A DNA stretch of 20,000 nucleotides from an uncultured virus (IMG/VR IMGVR_UViG_3300037189_026208) (lineage: Duplodnaviria > Heunggongvirae > Uroviricota > Caudoviricetes), in IMG/VR virus record IMGVR_UViG_3300037189_026208, positions 54,423 to 74,422 of that record. One strand, written 5' to 3'. The notes below the pieces were generated by a model. That model did not search any database. It was not told the origin of the DNA and was given only the letters and a program-made list of their open reading frames with translations. The translations under genes and the position numbers were made by a program. This document shows, piece after piece, positions 8 to 17,117 of this stretch; within the stretch, counting starts at the first letter, position 1, and each line of letters begins with the position of its first letter.

Positions 8-262
8 TTAATCTTTATTTACTACGCTGTCAAAACCTGCACTCCAGAGATCAGCAGCTTTTTTATTACCGCCTTTATGAGGATTTTCAGGCATAACACC
101 ATCTCTGAGATATCTTCTTCCAGCTAAAGCGCCATGGGCAAAATGATCAGATGCATCTGAGGCTGCGTGATAATCAGTAGGAGTTCTTGACATAAGTTTT
201 TCGTATTCTTGTCTACTAATAGTATCGTATGCTTCGTTTAAAGCGGTTTCGAATTTCGACAT
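8..262 (-). CDS. small hypothetical protein with T4-like leader (MSKFETALNE); C-terminal half weakly Rmf-like
   Basis: 84-aa ORF with TAAATA 6 nt upstream of ATG; G..AG...ENPH...ADLWSAGF loosely resembles the Rmf pattern. Confidence 0.75.
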   Translation of the reverse strand: MSKFETALNEAYDTISRQEYEKLMSRTPTDYHAASDASDHFAHGALAGRRYLRDGVMPENPHKGGNKKAADLWSAGFDSVVNKD

Positions 263-406: not shown

Positions 407-471
407 CGTACCCCTCTGCGTTTCCTTAGTAAAGGCTCCGGACTTGAGACCGGCTTAGTAGCATTAATACG
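407..471 (-). ncRNA. twister self-cleaving ribozyme (type P1, with P5 hairpin)
   Basis: CGUAU-UAA-UGC-UAC-UAA-GCCGG-UCUC-AAG-U-CCGG-AG-CCUU(UACU)AAGG-AAAC-GCA-GA-GGG-GUACG. P1 CGUAU/GUACG, P2 UGC/GCA, P4 from the two CCGG arms, T1 CUC/GGG, T2 AC/GU; conserved U^AA cleavage site and catalytic G. Confidence 0.88.
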
Positions 472-612: not shown

Positions 613-1578
613 TTACGTTATAGCATCAATTAATCCACCGAAATTTTCTTCGGTCTCCGGATCAATTATACCTTTTAGTAAATCAGATTCTATTGGATAA
701 AGATCATTATACTCGACTACATATTTTTCACTTTTATCTTTAGCAAAATCAGGCTCAACAAGAGCTTGTCGTACGCGATGTCTTGCCCAAGGACTCATTT
801 CCACAGCTGGTTTAATGTATGTAGCAAGTTCACCTTTCCATAAATTATCTCTATCACTTCTTAAACAAACTCTATCTCCCTCTTTAAGGTTGTTTCTCCA
901 TGTTTCTAAATCAAAATCCTTACTCTCTGTAACACTTAGTAAATCACTAAATGAATCTTTAGTATCTTTTGTTAATGACTTTCTTAATTCCCAATCAATA
1001 GGAAATAATTTACTTAGATTGTATCTAGTATAGCCTTGAGAGCCATCTATATTGTGACCTTCTTTAACAAGTAAAGCAATATCTCTAAAACTATCAACTA
1101 CTTCTAAATATGTAGCTTTAAATCCACGGACAGTAAAAGGTCTAACTTCTACCTTATCGCCTTTCTTTAAGTTACTTCGCCAAGTTCTAAGATATTCGTA
1201 ATCCTCTTGAGTCTCTTCTGATACTATATCGATTAAATCGCTAAATGAATTTTCTGTATCCTTAGATAGAGAGTTCTTTAATTCATATTTTTTTAAAGCT
1301 TTTTGTACTTTATCGGTTACAACCTTTCTAACTGTATAGTAACTATCAGGTACATGTAAGCTTCTATACCATTCATCAAAATCTTTCATATGAACAAACC
1401 AACCATTACCTGATTTAGCATCTCTAGTCCATATAGCAGGTTTTCCGTCTATAATAATATCCCAACAAGGATTCCACATCTGACCTCCCATTAAGGTTTC
1501 AAAAGGACCCTTAACAATCTCTACTTTAAGATCATTAGCTCTTCTTAATTCCTCTAATATAAGATCATTAAATCTCAC
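613..1578 (-). CDS. tag-family protein with three fused units (units 2 and 3 SH3/KOW-like)
   Basis: GTG start with TAAATA 7 nt upstream; leader MRFNDLILEE; tags LSKDTENSFSDLIDIV, LTKDTKDSFSDLLSV, IDPETEENFGGLIDAIT. Confidence 0.9.
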   Translation of the reverse strand: MRFNDLILEELRRANDLKVEIVKGPFETLMGGQMWNPCWDIIIDGKPAIWTRDAKSGNGWFVHMKDFDEWYRSLHVPDSYYTVRKVVTDKVQKALKKYELKNSLSKDTENSFSDLIDIVSEETQEDYEYLRTWRSNLKKGDKVEVRPFTVRGFKATYLEVVDSFRDIALLVKEGHNIDGSQGYTRYNLSKLFPIDWELRKSLTKDTKDSFSDLLSVTESKDFDLETWRNNLKEGDRVCLRSDRDNLWKGELATYIKPAVEMSPWARHRVRQALVEPDFAKDKSEKYVVEYNDLYPIESDLLKGIIDPETEENFGGLIDAIT

Positions 1579-1717
1579 GGTTTATTATTTATCAATATCT
1601 GCTCTAGCGCGGCGAGGTTTCTCCTAATTTCCCCGCTTAGTGCATCCGTCTCGGCCCCAAAGTTTTTGAAAATATTTTATACTCTAAATTGAATTCCGAT
1701 TATTAATTCTAGGGAAA

Positions 1718-2002
1718 TTAAAGAATATCTAATAGATCTCCGAACGTCTCGCCTGTCTCCTTGGACAGATGCCGCTTTATATTATGATCTTCTATAGCTT
1801 TGGCAATAGCGTTCTTTACTCCTTGCTTCTTATAGAGTTCAAGTCCCCAAACAGTGAGGTATTGGTTAGTCTCCAAATATCTAAAACCATCTGGCTCCTC
1901 GCCTATTGTTAACTTCTGGCCATCTACCTCCACGTCATAGCCTATATAGCCTTCGTCCTTAAGGTCGTAAGGACCTCTTAAGAATTTTACTTTATAAGAC
2001 AT
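1718..2002 (-). CDS. tag-family protein, last array member
   Basis: Ends LSKETGETFGDLLDIL; GGAGG 8 nt before ATG. Confidence 0.9.
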   Translation of the reverse strand: MSYKVKFLRGPYDLKDEGYIGYDVEVDGQKLTIGEEPDGFRYLETNQYLTVWGLELYKKQGVKNAIAKAIEDHNIKRHLSKETGETFGDLLDIL

Positions 2003-2345
2003 CTAAGAACCCTCCGAATGAATCTCTTGTTTCTGGAGACATAGCTTGAAGTGTCTCCCAATTCTTAATAGCTTTAGCTACCGGACCGTTTTCAGTATCT
2101 TTTCCATCCCAAAGGTAAATCTCTGGCATATAAAGAACATAAGGGTATTCACCACGTTCTGGAGTATAAATGACAAAACTATTTCGATCTTCCGTATCCT
2201 CTTTAATATGCATTAACCAGGCACCTTCTATATCTTCGGGAAGTGTATAGCCTCGCTTTAGATACTCATTGATCTCTTCATCGGTAGCCCTTCTTAGGAC
2301 TTTATAGAAGTTACCAGACTCTAGAAAGAACTTGTTAAAGGACAT
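1992..2345 (-). CDS. tag-family protein
   Basis: MSFNKFFLES...MSPETRDSFGGFLDVL; 11-nt overlaps with both neighbours. Confidence 0.9.
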   Translation of the reverse strand: MSFNKFFLESGNFYKVLRRATDEEINEYLKRGYTLPEDIEGAWLMHIKEDTEDRNSFVIYTPERGEYPYVLYMPEIYLWDGKDTENGPVAKAIKNWETLQAMSPETRDSFGGFLDVL

Positions 2346-2709
2346 CTAATAAACCTCCAAATGAATCTTTAGTTTCTTTGTCTACACTATTTAAAAGATT
2401 ATAATCTTCTATAGCCTTGTCTATTTGTTCTCTAAACGGATCATCATAGACGTCGGTATGATTGGGGATAATCTTAGGATAGGGAGGTAGCCAATGCCCT
2501 CTATAATGACCTGGTGGCCAGCAGTAATAGCATATGCACTCCTTGTCCTTATACTTCATTTGTAGCTTATAGACATTCTCTTCCCAATCTTTTATATCCA
2601 GCTCATTACGAAAGAGATGGGTCATTGGTCCCTCAAGTATCTTTACTTCAATTCCTCTATTATCACCGTAATTGATAAGAGCTTCTTTTATTAATCGATC
2701 AAAGTACAT
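2335..2709 (-). CDS. tag-family protein
   Basis: MYFDRLIKEA...VDKETKDSFGGLLDVL. Confidence 0.9.
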   Translation of the reverse strand: MYFDRLIKEALINYGDNRGIEVKILEGPMTHLFRNELDIKDWEENVYKLQMKYKDKECICYYCWPPGHYRGHWLPPYPKIIPNHTDVYDDPFREQIDKAIEDYNLLNSVDKETKDSFGGLLDVL

Positions 2710-3115
2710 CTAATAATCCTCCAAATGAATCTCTTGTATCTTTACTTAATCCTTGCTTAAAATTCCATTGATCTATAAGAGCTGGAACTGTTTCACGTAA
2801 CATCTTATTAAGGAATTGAGCTCTCGGGGCTGACTTGTGTTGTCTACCGACCATACGTTTAAACCAAGTAGGTGTTTGAATAACAGTATAATAAGCTGTT
2901 GTCTTCTGAAGCTCTCTATCTTTATCCTCTATCTTCTTAACCCACCAAGTACCTCCTTTACTATCCTTTAAACAAAAGACCTCTTTATAGTCTTTATGTG
3001 GAGGTTGTTCAAGATGAAGCTCACCAGTAAGACTATCCATAAAGCCGGTACCTACAACCTTAAATGTTGTATTCATCCAGTCCAGTTCTTCTAATACTAA
3101 TTGATTAAAGTACAT
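2699..3115 (-). CDS. tag-family protein
   Basis: MYFNQLVLEE...LSKDTRDSFGGLLDVL. Confidence 0.9.
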   Translation of the reverse strand: MYFNQLVLEELDWMNTTFKVVGTGFMDSLTGELHLEQPPHKDYKEVFCLKDSKGGTWWVKKIEDKDRELQKTTAYYTVIQTPTWFKRMVGRQHKSAPRAQFLNKMLRETVPALIDQWNFKQGLSKDTRDSFGGLLDVL

Positions 3116-3467
3116 CTAATAATCCTCCGAATGTTTTCTTTGTATCATTACTTAATAGCTTTCTAAACTCCCAATCATTAATAGCATCAGGAACTAACCC
3201 GGAGAACCCCATAAAGGTTACATCTCCGCTATCATGAATGTTGTAGCTAGTATATCCTTCCTTCTCGTTATCTTTAAACCGTACAACAAGACGCGGCCAA
3301 TACCCAGGTCTATTACCATCATCGTCTACCACCCAGGCACCTTTTATATACTCTTCCCTTACCCAGCGATAGCCATAACCGTATATCCTCTGAAGATCTT
3401 CTTCTGTAGCGTCCCGAACGACGTGATACTTCTCTAAAGCTTCTAATACTATTTGATTAAAGTACAT
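3105..3467 (-). CDS. tag-family protein
   Basis: MYFNQIVLEA...LSNDTKKTFGGLLDVL. Confidence 0.9.
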   Translation of the reverse strand: MYFNQIVLEALEKYHVVRDATEEDLQRIYGYGYRWVREEYIKGAWVVDDDGNRPGYWPRLVVRFKDNEKEGYTSYNIHDSGDVTFMGFSGLVPDAINDWEFRKLLSNDTKKTFGGLLDVL

Positions 3468-3798
3468 CTAATAATCCTCCGAAAGTTTCTCTTGTATCCT
3501 TTGATAAGGATTGTTTTAATTCCCAATCTTTCATAGCTTTAATAATAAGGCTATCAAGTGTATCAATATCAATACCGAATAGCTTTTTACATTGATCTCG
3601 TTCATATACAGCATTATCCGGATCAATTCCTGAAGTATTTAAACCATCGAGATAAAGCATACATTGATCATCTTTGACATAACGAAAGAAACACTTCTTA
3701 CCATTTACAGTTATATTATAATGAAGGTCTCCGATAGCCCAATCTGGAAGATCTTTGTCTTCTATAACATTAATAATCTTAATAGAAGGTTGTTTCAT
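3457..3798 (-). CDS. tag-family protein without N-leader
   Basis: Ends LSKDTRETFGGLLDVL; starts 8 nt after the previous stop. Confidence 0.9.
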   Translation of the reverse strand: MKQPSIKIINVIEDKDLPDWAIGDLHYNITVNGKKCFFRYVKDDQCMLYLDGLNTSGIDPDNAVYERDQCKKLFGIDIDTLDSLIIKAMKDWELKQSLSKDTRETFGGLLDVL

Positions 3799-3806
3799 AT
3801 AGGCTA

Positions 3807-4343
3807 TTAGAGGGCGTCTAGGAAGTCCTTAAATGATCCTTGAGTCTTAGTATCGGTTTGTCCTAGAGCTAAGAAGTTCTTTTCTTTATGTTTTATCCAC
3901 CAGTTTACTAGCTTATCTAGCTTCTCGGCAAATGCGTAATGATAACCTTTCTGCCTCCATACTGGATCCTCTGTATTATTATCATAATGAACGAAGTAAC
4001 TTATATATGGATATAAAACATTCGGTACCCAAGAGGCAGCTGCAGCAATATGGGTAGGTCCTGTTTCATCTTCAAGTCTTCTAGTATCATCAATACAAGT
4101 CATATAATATGTCTTTGTATCTGTCCATGTAGCAAGCTCCCTAGTCTTATGTAATATACCATTAGGTTCAGCCTCCTTCGGTAGTCCTTCTTTAATGTCA
4201 TATATCTCAAAGTTATGAAAGGGCATTGAATCAACCTCATCCGTTGACCAGACCGATCGTTCAAAGCCTTGCTTTCTATCGGGGTTTCTTGATCGAGGTA
4301 CATTAGCTACTAGAGCCTCTTTGAAGTAATCTTTAAATGACAT
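3807..4343 (-). CDS. tag-family protein, longer core, divergent tag
   Basis: MSFKDYFKEA...TDTKTQGSFKDFLDAL. Confidence 0.88.
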   Translation of the reverse strand: MSFKDYFKEALVANVPRSRNPDRKQGFERSVWSTDEVDSMPFHNFEIYDIKEGLPKEAEPNGILHKTRELATWTDTKTYYMTCIDDTRRLEDETGPTHIAAAASWVPNVLYPYISYFVHYDNNTEDPVWRQKGYHYAFAEKLDKLVNWWIKHKEKNFLALGQTDTKTQGSFKDFLDAL

Positions 4344-4680
4344 CGATTAAACCTCCAAATGATTGTTCAGTATCCTTTGATAGATTGTTTTTTAATTCCC
4401 AAGATATAAGCTGTTTGTATATAGGAAAGTCCGGATAGATATACCCTTCAAAGCCATAATTAGGTAAGCTATACACCATTAAGTTTTCATTGTTAAGATC
4501 TTCAAATAAGTCCTTACAACGTATGACTAGAACATCAGATACATCGGTATAGTTTCTAATTACCCATCCTCTAGTTAATTTTAAATCCTCATCATATTGA
4601 GAAGATAAACCATCGAGTATTTTCTGAGGAGCTAATTCTATCTTCTCCTTCTTTGATTCGTAGAATAACTTAAATGACAT
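4333..4680 (-). CDS. tag-family protein
   Basis: MSFKLFYES...LSKDTEQSFGGLIDVI. Confidence 0.9.
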   Translation of the reverse strand: MSFKLFYESKKEKIELAPQKILDGLSSQYDEDLKLTRGWVIRNYTDVSDVLVIRCKDLFEDLNNENLMVYSLPNYGFEGYIYPDFPIYKQLISWELKNNLSKDTEQSFGGLIDVI

Positions 4681-5068
4681 CTAGTAGCCCTCCGAAAGTA
4701 TCTCTTGTCTTATCTGGTAGATGCCTCCTTTGTTCAAAGTCATCTATAGCCTTAACTACTCTCCTACCTTCTTCTCTATAGGCTGGTATATCCCGCTCGG
4801 TAAAGGCACCACATCTATCCATACCTTCTAAAGTATAAACATCATAACCTTTTACATACGTAATAGATCTTATAGCAATATATCTAGCAATATATCTATC
4901 AGTTCCTGATTCCTTCTTTATAGTAAGAAGATAGAGAGGGTCATCTTTTCTCCAAGGATACTTCCTACGAAAGACCCCCTCATACCCCTCAGGCACTGCT
5001 TCTACAGTTATATTATCTCTTTGAAGCTTATAAGGCTCTTTAGATTCGTAGAATAACTTAAATGACAT
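4670..5068 (-). CDS. tag-family protein
   Basis: MSFKLFYES...LPDKTRDTFGGLLDVI. Confidence 0.9.
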   Translation of the reverse strand: MSFKLFYESKEPYKLQRDNITVEAVPEGYEGVFRRKYPWRKDDPLYLLTIKKESGTDRYIARYIAIRSITYVKGYDVYTLEGMDRCGAFTERDIPAYREEGRRVVKAIDDFEQRRHLPDKTRDTFGGLLDVI

Positions 5069-5411
5069 CTAATAGACCTCCAAATGAATCTTTAGTATCG
5101 TCTGATAGATTATTTTTAAACTCCCATTTCTTAATAGCTTTAGCAAGAGGTGAGTTTATATCCTCATGACTAATAAGGTCAATAGTGTTAGGGTCTAATG
5201 TGTAAATTGAATATGTCTTCCAGTCAGGAATATATGCTACAATAACCTGTCCTTCATCATAGTCATCGTTCATATAAACGATCCATGCCTGTTCAATATC
5301 TCCCTTCTCCGTATCAAGATCTCTTGTAAGATCTTTAAGTTCTTTCTTTGTAAATCTTCTAAGAACTTTGTATGAGTCGTTTGACTCTGTAAAAAATTGT
5401 TTAAATGACAT
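5058..5411 (-). CDS. tag-family protein, first array member
   Basis: MSFKQFFTES...LSDDTKDSFGGLLDVI; AAGGAG SD; TAAATA at 5433-5438. Confidence 0.9.
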   Translation of the reverse strand: MSFKQFFTESNDSYKVLRRFTKKELKDLTRDLDTEKGDIEQAWIVYMNDDYDEGQVIVAYIPDWKTYSIYTLDPNTIDLISHEDINSPLAKAIKKWEFKNNLSDDTKDSFGGLLDVI

Positions 5412-5431
5412 CTATCTATCTCCTTGATAGA

Positions 5432-5626
5432 TTATTTAAGAGTCTTTATTTCATTCCCTATCTCTACTATATACTCACCTATCTTAGACATGCCGAGCTC
5501 CTTGGTTAGGCTCTGCTTCTCCCTTAGTATTCTAACGATAGTCTCTAGCTTACCTAGATAGTCTTCTAATGTAAGCCCGGATAGATCTTCCTTTAGATAG
5601 CCTGATACAATTTCATTAAACTTCAT
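5432..5626 (-). CDS. small helical protein with T4-like leader (MKFNEIVSGYLKE)
   Basis: 64 aa; TAAATA 7 nt upstream; first gene of the array operon; no C-tag. Confidence 0.8.
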   Translation of the reverse strand: MKFNEIVSGYLKEDLSGLTLEDYLGKLETIVRILREKQSLTKELGMSKIGEYIVEIGNEIKTLK

Positions 5627-6459: not shown

Positions 6460-6846
6460 ATAGAACTATTTAAGGTATTTGAAAGGATTTTATTCCGGAT
6501 TTTGTTCCTTCCTCATCGATAGTCAGGCATGGAGCCTCTTCTACCGACCAGCTCGTGCTTAATCAATACATCAGGATCAAAGCTTACCATAGGTCTTTGG
6601 CTCCCCTGAACTAGATAGAGTCTATAAGCATCACCAACGAGCAATTCGACTCTACCTCCCTCTAGGATTATACCTACAACTAGAGGGTATTAATTTGTTT
6701 GACCGGGGTGGTTAATCCATCCTGATGCACCGGTTGATAAAGGCCTTTTAGAGCAACCTAGTCACGCGCACGTACGGTAGCTCTTTCGATCGAGCCTGCG
6801 AACGGTCAAAATGTTTTAAAGGCCTAAGCCATCATAGTCCTCCATA

Positions 6847-7050
6847 TTAATATCGTCCATGTCTCTTATCATAGGTAGCAAAAGGATCAGAGTCTACAAT
6901 GGTTACCAGGACCCAGGCCGCTATACAATTCCAAAAGGTATAATGAATATTGGTATGGAATAGATAATTGATTGCCCAGATACCGAGCCAGATGTCTAGA
7001 ACTCGATAGATGATATAGTAGATGCCTCGTACTAGTTCGTTCCGTTCCAT
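6847..7050 (-). CDS. small two-TM membrane protein (start revised to MERNEL)
   Basis: Two hydrophobic segments; ATG 1 nt after the upstream stop. Confidence 0.7.
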   Translation of the reverse strand: MERNELVRGIYYIIYRVLDIWLGIWAINYLFHTNIHYTFWNCIAAWVLVTIVDSDPFATYDKRHGRY

Positions 7051-10170: not shown

Positions 10171-10548
10171 TCAGTACCTAGGCACCACGATGGTGGGCTG
10201 TGGGGCGGTAAAATACGCTGGGGAATAATAAGCAGGGTTAGCATACGTCGGTACGTATCCTCCACATCCATAGGCTGGTACCGGGACGGGGGCAGCATAT
10301 GCTGGGGCGGCCAGAGCTCCGGCGACGCCTAAACCGAAGAGCGTCCAACCTAGGCCATTAGGGATGCCAGTTCCACACCAGCCACCTCCTCCCCCATAGC
10401 CACATCCCCCGCGGTAGTATCCTCCATTACCGCAACCCCCGCCCCATCCTCCACCACCGCGATAGCATCCCCCATTGCCGTTATAATAGGCTTGGGATGT
10501 ACTAACGAGAGCTGTAATAAGGAGTAGGGATAGAATGATCTTTTTCAT
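10171..10548 (-). CDS. signal-peptide Gly/Cys/Tyr-rich, Pro-rich exported or membrane protein
   Basis: MKKIILSLLLITALVSTSQA signal peptide; GGGGW/GGC repeats; hydrophobic GLGVAGALAA; YxxP tail. Confidence 0.8.
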   Translation of the reverse strand: MKKIILSLLLITALVSTSQAYYNGNGGCYRGGGGWGGGCGNGGYYRGGCGYGGGGGWCGTGIPNGLGWTLFGLGVAGALAAPAYAAPVPVPAYGCGGYVPTYANPAYYSPAYFTAPQPTIVVPRY

Positions 10549-10549
10549 A

Positions 10550-10741
10550 TTATTGATTGTAGTTAGAATTGGCTGATTGTGCAAGCTCCTCATAGTGTTC
10601 AATTACAAAGAGGTATTCATCTTTGGTTAGACCGGCGACGATTCGGGCCTGGGGATCGAGCATATTGTATCGACCGCCAGCTCGGACCTTCTCATAGGCG
10701 AGCCAGTCGTTGATTTGATCTTTGGTAAAGTCCATTGTCAT
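10550..10741 (-). CDS. small protein, DUF5049-like pattern
   Basis: VRAGGRYNMLD...EHYEEL; start revised to MTMDF. Confidence 0.6.
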   Translation of the reverse strand: MTMDFTKDQINDWLAYEKVRAGGRYNMLDPQARIVAGLTKDEYLFVIEHYEELAQSANSNYNQ

Positions 10742-12924: not shown

Positions 12925-12998
12925 TGGCTACCCCTCATGGATTCGAACCATGACAAAGAGAGCCAAAATCTCTTGTGCTACCGTTACACTAAAGGGTA
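12925..12998 (-). tRNA. tRNA-Gln(TTG)
   Basis: Cloverleaf; AGAGA-TT-TTG-GC-TCTCT; GGTTCGAATCC; CCA encoded. Confidence 0.95.
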
Positions 12999-13002
12999 AG
13001 AA

Positions 13003-13077
13003 TGGCTCCCGAGGCTGGATTCGAACCAACAACATGCGAGTTAACAGCTCGCTGCTCTACCGTTGAGCTACTCGGGA
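13003..13077 (-). tRNA. tRNA-Asn(GTT)
   Basis: GCGAG-CT-GTT-AA-CTCGC; CCA encoded. Confidence 0.95.
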
Positions 13078-13083
13078 ACAATT

Positions 13084-13166
13084 TGGGCAGAGAAGGACTC
13101 GAACCTTCGAAGGCGAATGCCAAAGGATTTACAGTCCTCCCCGTTTGACCGCTTCGGTATCTACCC
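13084..13166 (-). tRNA. tRNA-Tyr(GTA)
   Basis: GAGGA-CT-GTA-AA-TCCTT; long variable arm; CCA not encoded. Confidence 0.93.
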
Positions 13167-13217
13167 GTATTGCTTATACAATTTATAATAGACATAGATA
13201 TAGTCAAGAGAATAAAA

Positions 13218-13292
13218 TGGCATCCTCAAGGGGATTTGAACCCCTGCTAGGTCCGTGAAAGGGACCGGTGCTAACCGCTACACTATGAGGAC
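13218..13292 (-). tRNA. tRNA-Glu(TTC)
   Basis: GGTCC-CT-TTC-AC-GGACC; CCA encoded; TTGCCT-16-TATAAT upstream. Confidence 0.95.
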
Positions 13293-13785: not shown

Positions 13786-14091
13786 TTAAATGATACCCAA
13801 GAGACCTTCAAATGAGTCTTTTGTTTCCGGTGATAGATTCTTCATTATATTATATCTCTCTATCGCCTTTAATCCTTCTTCTTCTATATCTTTGAATATA
13901 TTAACCGATGTTGCCAGCCCCAGTAATGGCTTATATTTTGTTGGTACCTTTAAGAACGCTAGATATGATCTCTTTTTACCTTTTTCTAAAACAAATTGCC
14001 AGGTATTACCTTCATTATCTTTCATCTCATACCCTGGTTCCCTTCTCTTTCCTACTATCTTATACTCTACATCTGTAAATGTTAATGACAT
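13786..14091 (-). CDS. tag-family protein (dispersed)
   Basis: Ends KAIERYNIMKNLSPETKDSFEGLLGII. Confidence 0.88.
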   Translation of the reverse strand: MSLTFTDVEYKIVGKRREPGYEMKDNEGNTWQFVLEKGKKRSYLAFLKVPTKYKPLLGLATSVNIFKDIEEEGLKAIERYNIMKNLSPETKDSFEGLLGII

Positions 14092-14094
14092 AAC

Positions 14095-14226
14095 CTATTC
14101 CTTTACGCAATTATTAACTACCCTCCCGGATGGTAGCTTCTTTGTTCCTTTCTTCTTATATCCCTTCCAACAATGCATTTGCTTCTTTTCGGTTAATATA
14201 GCTTTTACAATTTTATCAAAATTCAT
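14095..14226 (-). CDS. 43-aa CWKGY...NCV microprotein with T4-like leader (not in ORF track)
   Basis: MNFDKIVKAILTEKKQMHCWKGYKKKGTKKLPSGRVVNNCVKE; perfect TATAAATA 6 nt upstream. Confidence 0.85.
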   Translation of the reverse strand: MNFDKIVKAILTEKKQMHCWKGYKKKGTKKLPSGRVVNNCVKE

Positions 14227-14232
14227 ATACTC

Positions 14233-14240
14233 TATTTATA
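14233..14240 (-). promoter_or_regulatory. T4-type late promoter TATAAATA (representative of 9 sites)
   Basis: TAA(A/G)TA 6-7 nt before starts at 262, 1578, 5626, 6459, 14226, 14589, 14615(+), 16471(+), 17278. Confidence 0.75.
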
Positions 14241-14589
14241 CAACATCAATAAAGCTACCGAACGTTTCTTTTGTATCATCGGACATATGCTTTTCTAATT
14301 CAAATCTATTATATTCCTTTTTTACTAGATCTCTAATATACTTTTCTAGTTCCTTACGATCTGGAGATAATGTATCTTTTGATATCCCAGGGATCTTACT
14401 ACTCAATGAATAGCCTATATCCTTATCAAATCCATCATTTGTCCCATAGATACCCATCTTCTCACCATTTATATAAACATCGGCTAGTACCGTCCATATC
14501 TTAGAACTAGTACTGGGACGAATCTTTACAGCAATATCCAATCCTGCAAAGCCTTCATTGAGTATACTCTCTACTAGATCCTGGAACAT
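14236..14589 (-). CDS. tag-family protein (dispersed)
   Basis: MFQDLVESILNE...MSDDTKETFGSFIDVV. Confidence 0.88.
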   Translation of the reverse strand: MFQDLVESILNEGFAGLDIAVKIRPSTSSKIWTVLADVYINGEKMGIYGTNDGFDKDIGYSLSSKIPGISKDTLSPDRKELEKYIRDLVKKEYNRFELEKHMSDDTKETFGSFIDVV

Positions 14590-14614
14590 ATATTATACTT
14601 ATTAAATAATACAC

Positions 14615-15025
14615 ATGTCATTTAGTCAATTAGTTCTGGAAACCCTAGATGAATACCGAGTCATCGGGGATGCCTCCCATCATGCTATCAATATGGCTAT
14701 GCGGTACTTTACCGCCGGGATCAAGGATACTGATAAGATCTTCACCCAACCTATTGAACATGGATGGCTTTTGAATGTACGAGGGGATAAGATTTATGTA
14801 TTCCCTAATTACTTTATAGGTATGATGGATCCAGGTGATTCAGATTACGTCGTCTTTAATGATCAATATAACTTCATTAACCGTTCAACCAATCGTGTTA
14901 ATAATCCAAAGGGAGTTATTGATAATAGAAAGATAAAGAAAGCGATTGAGAATTGGGAGATGCTTAAGTCAGTATCCCCAGATACTAAATCCTCATTCGA
15001 AGACTTATTAGGTACTATATCCTAA
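14615..15025 (+). CDS. tag-family protein (dispersed, plus strand)
   Basis: MSFSQLVLET...KAIENWEMLKSVSPDTKSSFEDLLGTIS. Confidence 0.88.
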   Translation: MSFSQLVLETLDEYRVIGDASHHAINMAMRYFTAGIKDTDKIFTQPIEHGWLLNVRGDKIYVFPNYFIGMMDPGDSDYVVFNDQYNFINRSTNRVNNPKGVIDNRKIKKAIENWEMLKSVSPDTKSSFEDLLGTIS

Positions 15026-15369
15026 CCGATCAGCTTCTCCAGTAGCATTCTACTGTTAACCTTAATATCACACTCCAAGGCGTCTCTAGATTCAATAGCC
15101 TTAAAGTACTCTTCGTCATTATCAATCAGTTCCTGACCTAACGTCTTCTTAACATCTGGATTGAGCTTTGATTTGATCAGTTCCAGGATTGGCTCCACAT
15201 CTTTATCTGATAGATGGAGGGTAACTTCGGAGCCATCATATACGGAACCATAATTGAATTCCAGCTTTAGAGTAACCGGAGGACATGGACTATAACCAAA
15301 TGGTTGACCAGTAAAGTCGGAGAAGTAACTTGCCTCCTCTATCTGTTCAGGAACGATTATCTTTTTCAT
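15022..15369 (-). CDS. hypothetical protein coupled to queD
   Basis: 115 aa; 4-nt overlap with queD. Confidence 0.8.
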   Translation of the reverse strand: MKKIIVPEQIEEASYFSDFTGQPFGYSPCPPVTLKLEFNYGSVYDGSEVTLHLSDKDVEPILELIKSKLNPDVKKTLGQELIDNDEEYFKAIESRDALECDIKVNSRMLLEKLIG

Positions 15370-15932
15370 AGTTTTCGATCATCATATTCAACAACACCCT
15401 TTTCGTCTCTATAAAGCTCAATTAGGTATTTGTTTCCAATATAGAAGTTAGAACGTTCATCTTGAGAAATAGAATCTCTATTACAATCGGTATAACAATT
15501 AGGCGTCTCATATAGACGAACATTCTCAATCCAAAGATTAGGATACTTGTTAAAGAGAATATCCATAGCCAGGAATACTTCTTTAGCAATATTCTCTACC
15601 GATGGATTGCAGTAATTACCTGGACCATTCAATGTCATAATCCAGAGCTTGGTACCTAAATCATTAACAGCCTTGATGAGTGTCCTATCATGACAATTGA
15701 GAATAGCTCCATGATCGAGCTTATCATCAATCCATTGACATCCTACTCTCTTAATCTCCTTGAAGTCTACAGCATATCCGATCTCTTCAATTGTATCAAA
15801 GCCAAAGGTTAGTTCATAAAGATATGTATGCCCATGAACATGAAAGCATTTCATCCGCTCATTCATTACCCGATGCATTACATCGAACGATCCCTTTCTA
15901 GTAATAGTCTGTTTAGTACTCATACTCTTCAT
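15366..15932 (-). CDS. queD: 6-carboxy-5,6,7,8-tetrahydropterin synthase (QueD/PTPS family)
   Basis: FDVMH, CFHVHGH metal motif, VDFKEIK, LDH, PSVENIA, VRLYETP; true start may be 15923. Confidence 0.9.
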   Translation of the reverse strand: MKSMSTKQTITRKGSFDVMHRVMNERMKCFHVHGHTYLYELTFGFDTIEEIGYAVDFKEIKRVGCQWIDDKLDHGAILNCHDRTLIKAVNDLGTKLWIMTLNGPGNYCNPSVENIAKEVFLAMDILFNKYPNLWIENVRLYETPNCYTDCNRDSISQDERSNFYIGNKYLIELYRDEKGVVEYDDRKL

Positions 15933-16139
15933 CTATTATAGATTCAACCCTTTTGAAATCAATAATAATAGGTATTTGCAGGGAGATCCTACTATTCCTT
16001 CAAATAAACCCTGAATTCCCCATTATTCAACACTTATTTCGACGTTGAATATCAACGACTTACGACAGCAAAAGCACGTATATTATTTATTGAAAAATCC
16101 TTTGTTTTTTACAGATTTCCCCTAAAAATCACTACTTTT

Positions 16140-16415
16140 TCACAGAATTCCCACAAAATCCTGGAAATTCTCCTGTGTTTTCTCTGATAATTCCTTAATA
16201 ATACTATAGTTTTTCGGGAACATTTTACAGATTTCCGCTACTTGATCCCTGTCTGTTGAACCATCCTGGTAACGAACATCTATCTTACACATTAAACTAC
16301 TAGGGAATATAGTTTGCATTTCCGTTACTTGTACGGTCATAATTCTTCCGTCATAGTAATAATCAAACCAGTCCCCAGGCTTGAGATTACTAACAAATGA
16401 TAGGTTATCGAACAT
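16140..16415 (-). CDS. tag-family protein, SH3-like core
   Basis: SNLKPGD...LSEKTQENFQDFVGIL; TTGAAC-17-TAGTAT-6-ATG. Confidence 0.82.
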   Translation of the reverse strand: MFDNLSFVSNLKPGDWFDYYYDGRIMTVQVTEMQTIFPSSLMCKIDVRYQDGSTDRDQVAEICKMFPKNYSIIKELSEKTQENFQDFVGIL

Positions 16416-16470
16416 GAATATATACTAGAGGAATTTGATTTATAGTTCAACTATAAAATAAATATAACCG

Positions 16471-16794
16471 ATGAACTTCGAGGATCTTGTTGTAGAGGCT
16501 ATACATAACAAATATGTTAAGTTTGATATAGAGATTCTTAGTGGTCCTTACCCTGGTGAACATTACGGGTGGTTGGAAGAGTGTCAAGTATACAAAGCAA
16601 GAATTTTTGATAATACAAACGTTCAATTAATCTATCAACCGAGTAGGGATTATGTTGGTGCGAAGAATTTTGACGTCTGGTGGTTTGGTCGGGAGGCTGG
16701 ATTTGACGAACAGGCCAAAGCAGCTATAATAAAATACAATATGTCAAAGGAAGCTAAGGGATCATTTGGTGACTTCTTAGACGCCATATCATGA
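16471..16794 (+). CDS. tag-family protein (plus strand)
   Basis: MNFEDLVVEA...MSKEAKGSFGDFLDAIS. Confidence 0.88.
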   Translation: MNFEDLVVEAIHNKYVKFDIEILSGPYPGEHYGWLEECQVYKARIFDNTNVQLIYQPSRDYVGAKNFDVWWFGREAGFDEQAKAAIIKYNMSKEAKGSFGDFLDAIS

Positions 16795-17117
16795 GCTTAA
16801 ACGTAGAAATAATTCCCAGAAGAACGTACGATACAAGTTACGGATTCAAGCGTTACAGTTGTAAGATATCCGGATCTGTAGACGGAATTGATATCAATAA
16901 TGCACTACCTTGGCAGAAAGGTGTCTTCCAAGTAGAAATATGGCATAATGGCTCCTGTCGACTACCTGCTTTAGATCAAGTTCCAGAGATTCCCTACCCT
17001 AAAACCTATCACAAGTTTTGTGCTGAAGTTAAGAAAGCTATTGAAGACCAGGAGCTAATATCCTCACTATCGCCGGAAACAGGCGATGCTTTCAAAGACC
17101 TTATTAGTATAACTTAG
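16791..17117 (+). CDS. tag-family protein (plus strand)
   Basis: Ends KAIEDQELISSLSPETGDAFKDLISIT; ATGA overlap. Confidence 0.85.
   Translation: MSLNVEIIPRRTYDTSYGFKRYSCKISGSVDGIDINNALPWQKGVFQVEIWHNGSCRLPALDQVPEIPYPKTYHKFCAEVKKAIEDQELISSLSPETGDAFKDLISIT

Follow-up and report, generated by a model that had tools for sequence, protein, structure and literature searches.

Coupled translation of overlapping genes (ATGA, TAATG), with the Shine-Dalgarno (SD) sequence inside the upstream gene, is textbook knowledge, and integrons line up promoter-less, repeat-bounded cassettes behind one upstream promoter. In T4-type phages, PeSLs are repeated units of a promoter and a stem-loop that lie between small non-essential genes (Arbiol et al. 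2010, PMC2839356). The internal proteins (IPs) of T4 are diverse and have only a capsid targeting sequence (CTS) in common, and the protease gp21 cuts after L/I-x-E (PMC3012670, PMC9026906, PMC5694885). Here we analyse a 20,000-nucleotide stretch of an uncultured virus of the Caudoviricetes (IMG/VR record IMGVR_UViG_3300037189_026208, positions 54,423 to 74,422; hereafter the window). In the list of open reading frames (ORFs), eleven tandem ORFs on the minus strand occupy 613-5411 and share a protein tail, ...LS.DTKDSFGGLLDV[LI] followed by the stop, and eight of their junctions carry a 24-nt element that is read in two ways. A 74-kb record, which ends with the window, lies whole and identical within a 218,400-bp record rated complete (G1); in G1 the window occupies positions 193598-213597. 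We consider it likely that these cassette genes form an array that is transcribed late and coupled in translation, and that they belong to an undescribed family confined to a small clade of uncultured T4-like phages.

The locus resembles each of these systems in part. As with PeSLs, a short repeat with expression signals marks the ends of insertions, deletions and replacements, with no integrase (PMC2839356). PeSLs, however, are non-coding and intergenic and carry a promoter and a terminator, whereas here the repeat is coding (the protein tail plus the next start), supplies a translation signal and leaves the genes in one operon. The intergenic early promoter and terminator stem-loop that characterize PeSLs are absent, as the junctions contain no intergenic DNA. 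With integrons the array shares promoter-less cassettes behind one upstream promoter, bounded by repeats and varying in content and order between relatives, but its boundaries lie within coding sequence, all cassettes come from one tagged family, and no integrase was found among the 22 window ORFs and 215 further G1 ORFs scanned; nor was an attC-type site noted, although no search aimed at it was made. The array belongs to neither the PeSL nor the integron class. It also has the start codon and SD sequence within upstream coding sequence that mark ordinary overlap coupling; unlike in that arrangement, the overlap is fixed at 11 nt and kept across the whole family and several genomes, and the SD sequence depends on codon choice inside a conserved protein motif. 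What is new is this fixed overlap kept across a family, with SD sequences inside a conserved protein motif in a genome that has no others, and a dual-coded junction element that doubles as a cassette boundary. The phage would thereby have a route to exchangeable gene arrays that needs neither an integrase nor intergenic signals; a coding stretch of ~45 nt would combine the roles of protein tag, ribosome hand-over and cassette boundary.

A dual-coded junction between overlapping genes

The initial annotation had placed GGAGG exactly 8 nt before an ATG inside GAT-GTN, with an 11-nt overlap, at eight junctions, and this description proved exact. In a scan that tolerated up to 2 mismatches, the reverse-complement pattern TYAWADKACATCKADNARNCCTCC matched at 1992, 2335, 2699, 3105, 3457, 4333, 4670 and 5058 with 0 mismatches each; these 8 matches compare with 0 in any of 200 dinucleotide-preserving shuffles, and the ORF coordinates give an overlap of exactly 11 nt at all eight places. 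The eight junctions read in codons as TTY GGA GGN YTN NTN GAT GTN NTN TRA. Each 24-nt element (1992-2015, 2335-2358, 2699-2722, 3105-3128, 3457-3480, 4333-4356, 4670-4693 and 5058-5081, minus strand) thus comprises the Gly-Gly codons (GGAGG), an 8-nt spacer and an ATG inside Asp-Val, with 11 nt in common with the upstream stop. Same-strand overlaps of 11 nt number ten in the whole genome, including the eight in the window, and GGAGG stands 8 nt ahead of the ATG in 10/10. Tags in the window that lack the overlap read FGG, FGD, FKD, FEG, FGS, FED, FQD, FGD and FKD, together with two internal FSD, so the earlier list of variants, by which such members mostly lose Gly-Gly and keep the rest of the tag, was correct on codon reading.

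The two codons following the invariant Phe spell the SD-like GGAGG, and the Asp codon GAT with the G that follows supplies the ATG. Codons 2-4 of the next gene (Ser/Tyr, Phe/Tyr, Lys/Asn) give the last residues and stop of the upstream gene. In the mechanism that we propose, a ribosome ending one cistron would restart 11 nt back on the following one.

We examined the SD reading at 98 junctions from nine sources (G1, a 37.5-kb viral fragment termed G2, and metagenome loci). The ATG lies inside the Asp codon in 55 of the 98, and five further phage arrays also have the 11-nt overlap. A GGAG/GAGG/AGGA hexamer is present at 43/55 junctions with the 11-nt overlap against 14/43 others, and with G1 left out the contrast is 33/45 against 9/29. 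The two residues after Phe vary across junctions (GG, GE, GD, EE, ED, KE and others), and coupled junctions elsewhere carry Gly-Glu, Glu-Glu, Glu-Asp or Lys-Glu in codons biased toward GGAG/GAGG/AGGA. Glu is written GAG in 12/13 coupled but 4/15 other copies (genome background 0.29), and Gly is written GGA in 28/30 against 8/12 (background 0.20); Glu codon usage in the uncoupled copies is near background. The synonymous comparison between coupled and uncoupled tags therefore agrees with the proposal that Gly-Gly is selected as a ribosome-binding site and the rest of the tag at protein level, in that the codon bias is seen in coupled copies and the tail is kept in uncoupled ones.

Individual cases point the same way. 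Cassette B reads GGA GAA ... GAT in L033, where it is 11-nt-coupled, and its ortholog in L034, which is uncoupled (the next gene starts at ATGA), reads AAC GAC ... GAC. Among 17 G2 tails, all 9 with GAC are without the overlap, though GAT makes up 78% of G1 Asp codons. Upstream of the first gene of the array (5058-5411), which has no upstream coding sequence to borrow from, a non-coding AGGAG (5420-5424) occupies the same -13 position, 8 nt before the ATG, and a TAAATA late-type motif lies at 5433-5438. In G1 as a whole, SD-like motifs stand upstream of 31/312 genes, in line with a chance level of 8.7%; by class, they are found at 10/10 family 11-nt overlaps and ~8% in every other class. G is depleted upstream of G1 starts, and the 45 overlaps of 1 or 4 nt in the rest of the genome make no use of SD sequences. 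These data support the reading of GGAGG as a ribosome-binding site, and we infer that it pairs with 16S rRNA.

Several points weigh against this assignment. The junctions share descent, so that Fisher tests overstate their independence and the p-value of the hexamer contrast (1e-5) is a generous one. GGAGG persists in two of the four Gly-Gly tails of G1 that are uncoupled, and 12/55 coupled junctions have no SD-like hexamer, from which we conclude that the motif is helpful without being essential. The lack of SD sites in the genome may also mean that the ribosomes of the host rely little on SD pairing, and in such a host GGAGG might act in another way. Separately, no RegB-type nuclease, which would act on GGAG, was found among 215 G1 ORFs scanned with PHROGs.

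The gene content of G1 identifies it as a T4-like myovirus. PHROG matches cover the head and tail (gp23-type capsid protein, gp21-type prohead protease, portal, sheath, tube and terminase) as well as replication and transcription (gp32, UvsX, gp41, gp44, gp46/47, the gp55 late sigma factor and DNA polymerase); the gp21-family prohead protease (L022:9623-10297) matches phrog_207 at 1.1e-58, and phrog_138 (capsid protein, L022:6935-8404) and phrog_213 (portal) are also matched. No cultured relative emerged: the capsid protein has at most 35% identity to cyanophage gp23, or to its counterpart in any cultured phage, and the entire window had no megablast match in 50,697 phage records. TAAATA occurs 10-20 nt upstream of 84/312 G1 genes, against 0.029 expected per upstream interval searched. 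It precedes 12/21 structural genes but 2/24 DNA/replication genes, as well as the family clusters in G1 and 5/6 array starts examined in other genomes, and within these clusters it is found only before the first gene. We read TAAATA as the late promoter of this T4-like phage, with very short leaders; together with the lack of SD usage, it suggests near-leaderless late mRNAs and a host with SD-independent initiation. Coupling matters because the other genes of the genome have no SD sequence, and most of them begin only a few bases past a late-type TAAATA promoter of their own; internal cistrons of the array cannot use a promoter-proximal start and therefore need coupling. The array offers natural material for testing how internal cistrons are translated in genomes, and probably hosts, without SD initiation.

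The conserved protein tail

In each protein, a brief flexible N-terminal stretch leads into an alpha/beta body of ~90 residues, which is divergent; a conserved helix (AI..WE.K) follows, and then a flexible, acidic and amphipathic tail with the consensus LS..TK.[ST]F..L[LI]D.[LI]. Among 19 members there were no Pfam matches and no credible PHROG matches, and tblastn of one member found the family in none of the 50,697 phage records. The family is rare: at E<=1e-3, a 16-member profile retrieved 64 proteins from 1.84 billion representatives. For the member at 1992-2345, AlphaFold2 (mean pLDDT 85.8, pTM 0.75) predicts a confident alpha/beta body at residues 11-101 with pLDDT >90, which closes with the conserved AI..WE helix; the first 10 residues are at ~50, and the tail helix (104-116) drops from 72 to 45, so both ends are modelled as flexible. 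Searches with the body gave nothing at E<=0.001 in the PDB with Foldseek, a best Z of 5.5, within noise, against 48,161 chains with VIA-align, and no usable match in the ESM Atlas.

The tag terminates 24 ORFs in the full G1 genome, among them a second cluster at 7.4-9.6 kb, an NT5C-type deoxyribonucleotidase and a 662-aa leucine-rich-repeat-like protein. In sister lineages, the metagenomic polyproteins P0052, P0059 and P0069 hold 2 to 6 family modules in frame, with the tag variant GLKG.AK.TW.DILE(S/F)K between them; judged by their sequences, these polyproteins are the fused form of the overlapped junction. A search for the tag on longer proteins found only one further polyprotein.

Since the overlap restricts the two SD codons as well as the final four, the tail could in principle be no more than a protein reading of the downstream ribosome-binding site and start codon, with no role of its own. 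We find this hardly credible. The tail is kept where no gene follows, on both strands, internally in fused proteins, and on the nucleotidase and the 662-aa protein; its conservation reaches ~25 residues upstream of the overlap, and its Phe is invariant. Synonymous sites are near random while residues are kept, with identical codons at same-residue positions at a frequency of 0.46-0.58 against 0.38-0.45 expected. Gene conversion was rejected as the cause of the uniformity of tails within a genome, synonymous identity being only slightly above expectation.

The tail type differs between genomes: LLDV[LI] in G1, LIDEL in three arrays, IIDEL in L041 (16/19) and GLKG.AKDTW.DIL in a third lineage. 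Same-genome pairs without detectable body similarity have 16-residue tails that are 0.52-0.78 identical, and in 24 pairs of body homologues between G1 and other genomes (mean body identity 46.5%) the tails are 0.39 identical; in one pair the bodies are 83% and the tails 38% identical. These comparisons indicate that the tail is maintained by selection on the protein and that the genome, rather than the attached body, determines which type is present. The tail probably serves for docking or as an address, and in our model it would bring all family members and the few larger tagged proteins onto a single shared partner.

The partner could instead lie within the family, with the tail binding members together, neighbours forming a hetero-oligomer or chain, and the coupling serving co-assembly. 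The natural polyproteins, in which the tag is a linker between 2 to 6 modules, fit such a scheme, and P0052 fuses homologues of two adjacent 11-nt-overlapped G2 genes in their original order. The AlphaFold2 model of P0052, however, consists of two confident domains (pTM 0.49) joined by a low-confidence linker with no fixed interface, weak evidence in view of the poor alignment at the internal tag, and the shuffling of cassette order between genomes disfavours specific neighbour pairs. We therefore regard co-assembly as unlikely.

T4 polymerase and late-transcription proteins carry C-terminal clamp-docking tails, and a docking motif for the replisome or sliding clamp, with the family acting as clamp- or replication-associated adaptors, is a further candidate for the tail. 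The deoxyribonucleotidase among the tagged proteins would suit this role, and the DNA polymerase fragment (phrog_262) and RNase H-like exonuclease (phrog_107) of the phage themselves end in acidic, Leu-rich tails. The tail profile nevertheless found no match (E<10) to the tails of these two proteins, in which the hydrophobic spacing differs, and the family clusters have the late-type TAAATA that replication genes mostly lack (2/24). PF09116 and PF02916 detected no clamp homologue in the 218-kb genome, in which a 196-aa ORF adjoining the small clamp-loader homologue is a candidate clamp (L018:12296-12886). Overall, we consider clamp docking very unlikely.

Tentatively, and by analogy, the docking or address peptide that we favour could be a tag for the prohead core (capsid), a C-terminal counterpart of the T4 CTS, on proteins that would be packaged and injected. 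This is our best guess, held with reservation. Its grounds are the late-type promoter motif at the family clusters and the presence of a gp21-family protease in a T4-type phage. Like IPI, IPII, IPIII and Alt, the family consists of diverse small proteins with only a short terminal peptide in common (PMC3012670, PMC9026906, PMC5694885). T4 and G1 both have a gp21-type protease. The ip genes of T4 flank its tRNA cluster, and the family here flanks four tRNA genes (12925-13292, minus strand; Gln-TTG, Asn-GTT, Tyr-GTA and Glu-TTC), which lie between the main array and the scattered members. In the T4 CTS, residues 4 and 7 steer targeting and residues 8 and 10 processing, and Alt sheds a C-terminal propeptide besides its N-terminal one (PMC3012670, PMC9026906, PMC5694885). 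In a subset of the proteins here the N-terminus may resemble the CTS: an M.FK[QE]hh.E-like start is seen in some members, in the tagged protein of 662 aa and in the scaffold-position ORF (L022:8462-9436), much as the N-terminus of the T4 scaffold resembles the T4 CTS. The polyprotein joints of the sister lineages, ...DILE|SK and ...DILE|FK, fit the prohead-protease motif L/I-x-E.

Other observations count against capsid targeting, a reading that draws on analogy and promoter type. The peptide is C-terminal here and unrelated in sequence to that of the T4 IPs. Members have no PHROG or Pfam match that would indicate homology to IPI, IPII, IPIII or Alt, and the termini of Alt look unrelated. The L/I-x-E cleavage motif requires a Glu, which is missing from G1 tails. 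Of 84 genes downstream of a tag, only 15 have the full T4-CTS-like start, M.[FY]..hh.E, and the overlap dictates its initial four residues. The tail profile, run against 34 kb of T4, had its top match near the N-terminus of gp22 at an E of 0.04-0.08 in this small set, which is not significant. The tail box of T4 e.2-e.5 was considered as a relative of the tag and rejected, as the sequences are unrelated.

With the same reservation, the head-loaded set would comprise about two dozen changeable small late proteins, the nucleotidase and the repeat protein, probably as counter-defence factors. If the address-tag reading is true, the junction would be a plug-and-play connector through which any inserted cassette gains both an end tag and a start hand-over, in a phage and a host that otherwise make no use of SD initiation. 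If the tail is a packaging address, it would also provide a new means of getting foreign proteins into the heads of phages.

A second terminal motif was seen in this clade. At least seven G2 ORFs (L016 4459-13096) code for proteins that differ apart from a shared N-terminal motif, M.(N)KDA.(L/F)LAEAY.(K/S)I, and the window ORF 8-262 (minus strand) has a related start, ...ALNEAYDTI; from its sequence, this may be another terminal address motif.

Cassette turnover in related genomes

Comparison of relatives bears out the proposal that whole cassettes are added, deleted or swapped with coupling intact. L033 and L034 are 85.6% identical in nucleotide sequence, and L033 has one additional cassette of 342 nt with a 41-nt junction duplicated on both sides. 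Similarly, L040 has one cassette more than G2, flanked by a duplicated 54-nt junction, and at this indel site polyproteins P0059 and P0069 hold yet another cassette type. Two cassettes stand in opposite order in L039 and L034, and L032 (11 cassettes) and L034 (15 cassettes) have conserved flanks on both sides with different cassette sets between them. The two single-cassette indels with duplicated junctions and the order swap correspond to the repeats at indel ends that are known for PeSLs. Clustering of the bodies gave 18 shared types, whose order differs in every array. With a common junction at both ends, whole cassettes have been gained, lost and rearranged between related phages while reading frames and coupling stayed intact, and we infer that exchange occurs by homologous recombination in the junction. 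The arrays provide natural material for studying how T4-like phages diversify and deliver accessory proteins.

The expectation that adjacent junctions would be most alike held in part. Junctions 4670/5058 share a string of 29 nt and 3105/3457 one of 31 nt, and junction-centred self-matches in the window extend over 74-100 nt at 83-84% identity. The general trend was weakly borne out, with an identity over 70-nt junction windows of 0.59 for adjacent and 0.52 for non-adjacent pairs in this array and a difference of 0.03 or less in four other arrays.

Some findings limit the case for recombination in the junction. Junction DNA is 52-63% identical over 70 nt, and exact repeats of at least 29 nt join only two junction pairs in this array; together these make a thin substrate for homologous recombination. 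Cassette changes were seen at 80-90% identity, but G2 and L043, which are 97.5% identical, are collinear over 5,852 nt with no cassette change. Mini-circles have been demonstrated for PeSLs (PMC2839356); here, deletions or circles with breakpoints in the repeat, a check suggested earlier, were not seen in contigs of one run holding the locus, and contigs cannot show rare forms. This run may be the source of the locus. Its contig breaks fall on the 31-nt repeats 3102-3130 and 3453-3483, and two junctions are touched by one further contig.

In its strong form, the earlier idea of an integrase-free integron makes the junction repeat chiefly a recombination site and the tag and coupling its by-products. 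Indels do terminate in the junction, cassette orders are shuffled, and T4-type phages shuffle genes via short repeated regulatory cassettes (PMC2839356). The low identity of the junction DNA, synonymous sites that are not homogenised, conservation at the level of residues, tail types that track the genome at protein level and the absence of cassette change at 97.5% identity all speak against it, and we judge this strong form quite unlikely.

Array genes and neighbouring features

All genes of the array lie on the minus strand. Gene 1 (5058-5411, 117 aa) ends in ...DTKDSFGGLLDVI, and gene 2 (4670-5068, 132 aa, tail FGGLLDVI) shares the 11 nt of its start with gene 1. Gene 3 (4333-4680, 115 aa) has a body with 83% identity to a cassette of L032 that has other neighbours and another tail. 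Gene 4 (3807-4343, 178 aa) ends in FKDFLDAL, its stop is overlapped by no gene, and the gene that follows begins 8 nt past this stop without an SD sequence. This is gene 5 (3457-3798, 113 aa, tail FGGLLDVL), followed by gene 6 (3105-3467, 120 aa) and gene 7 (2699-3115, 138 aa). The last is a homologue of the G2 gene L016:9601-10011, whose counterpart is fused to the following module in the natural polyprotein P0052. Gene 8 (2335-2709, 124 aa) and gene 9 (1992-2345, 117 aa, the member modelled with AlphaFold2) precede gene 10 (1718-2002, 94 aa), which ends in FGDLLDIL without a downstream overlap. The last gene (613-1578, 321 aa) consists of three fused modules with two internal tags, FSDLIDIV and FSDLLSVT, as linkers; its terminal tag is FGGLIDAIT, with Gly-Gly coded GGT GGA.

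Six further family members lie outside the array, on both strands of 13786-17117. Past the tRNA cluster, the member at 13786-14091 (minus strand, tail FEGLLGII) has a body of cluster B, which is also present in G2, L032, L034, L040 and L041. It is followed by members at 14236-14589 (minus strand, tail FGSFIDVV), 14615-15025 (plus strand, tail FEDLLGTIS, with a TAAATA motif upstream) and 16140-16415 (minus strand, tail FQDFVGIL). Two more on the plus strand (16471-16794 and 16791-17117) are linked by a 4-nt ATGA overlap.

Between the first two of these scattered members, a 43-aa ORF (14095-14226, minus strand) ends in ...KQMHCWKGYKKKGTKKLPSGRVVNNCVKE, and a G2 protein of 162 aa (L016 7999-8487) has at its C-terminus a near-identical peptide, which is basic and contains Cys. 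Both proteins start with an M.F(D)..V..IL motif. A QueD-like 6-pyruvoyl-tetrahydropterin synthase is encoded at 15366-15932 (minus strand), and, with loci at 30259-30954, 156541-157470, 177614-178132 and 178324-179154, G1 also has QueC-like, QueE-like, GTP cyclohydrolase and second QueD-like genes. From its sequences, this Que-type gene set suggests a 7-deazaguanine DNA modification pathway.

The window has a GC content of 39% and contains GC-rich (up to 0.49) non-coding islands at 263-612, 1579-1717 and 6480-6850, the second of which splits the array between its last two genes. In the first island, ~140 nt downstream of the last array gene and on the same strand, a sub-threshold match to the type-P1 twister ribozyme lies at 408-470 (minus strand; 35.8 bits, with the gathering score at 67.2, and an E of 2.4e-6 for the stretch of 350 nt). 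This match covers the full model with the variable hairpin deleted and keeps the conserved UAA, CCGGUC.CAAG.CCGG and GAGGG blocks; besides it, the three islands have no Rfam match at E<=1. Further from the array, a 143-aa ORF (10171-10602, minus strand) combines an N-terminal hydrophobic segment with a Gly/Tyr-rich repeat core (GGGW and GGY runs) and, by this composition, may encode a secreted or structural glycine-rich protein.

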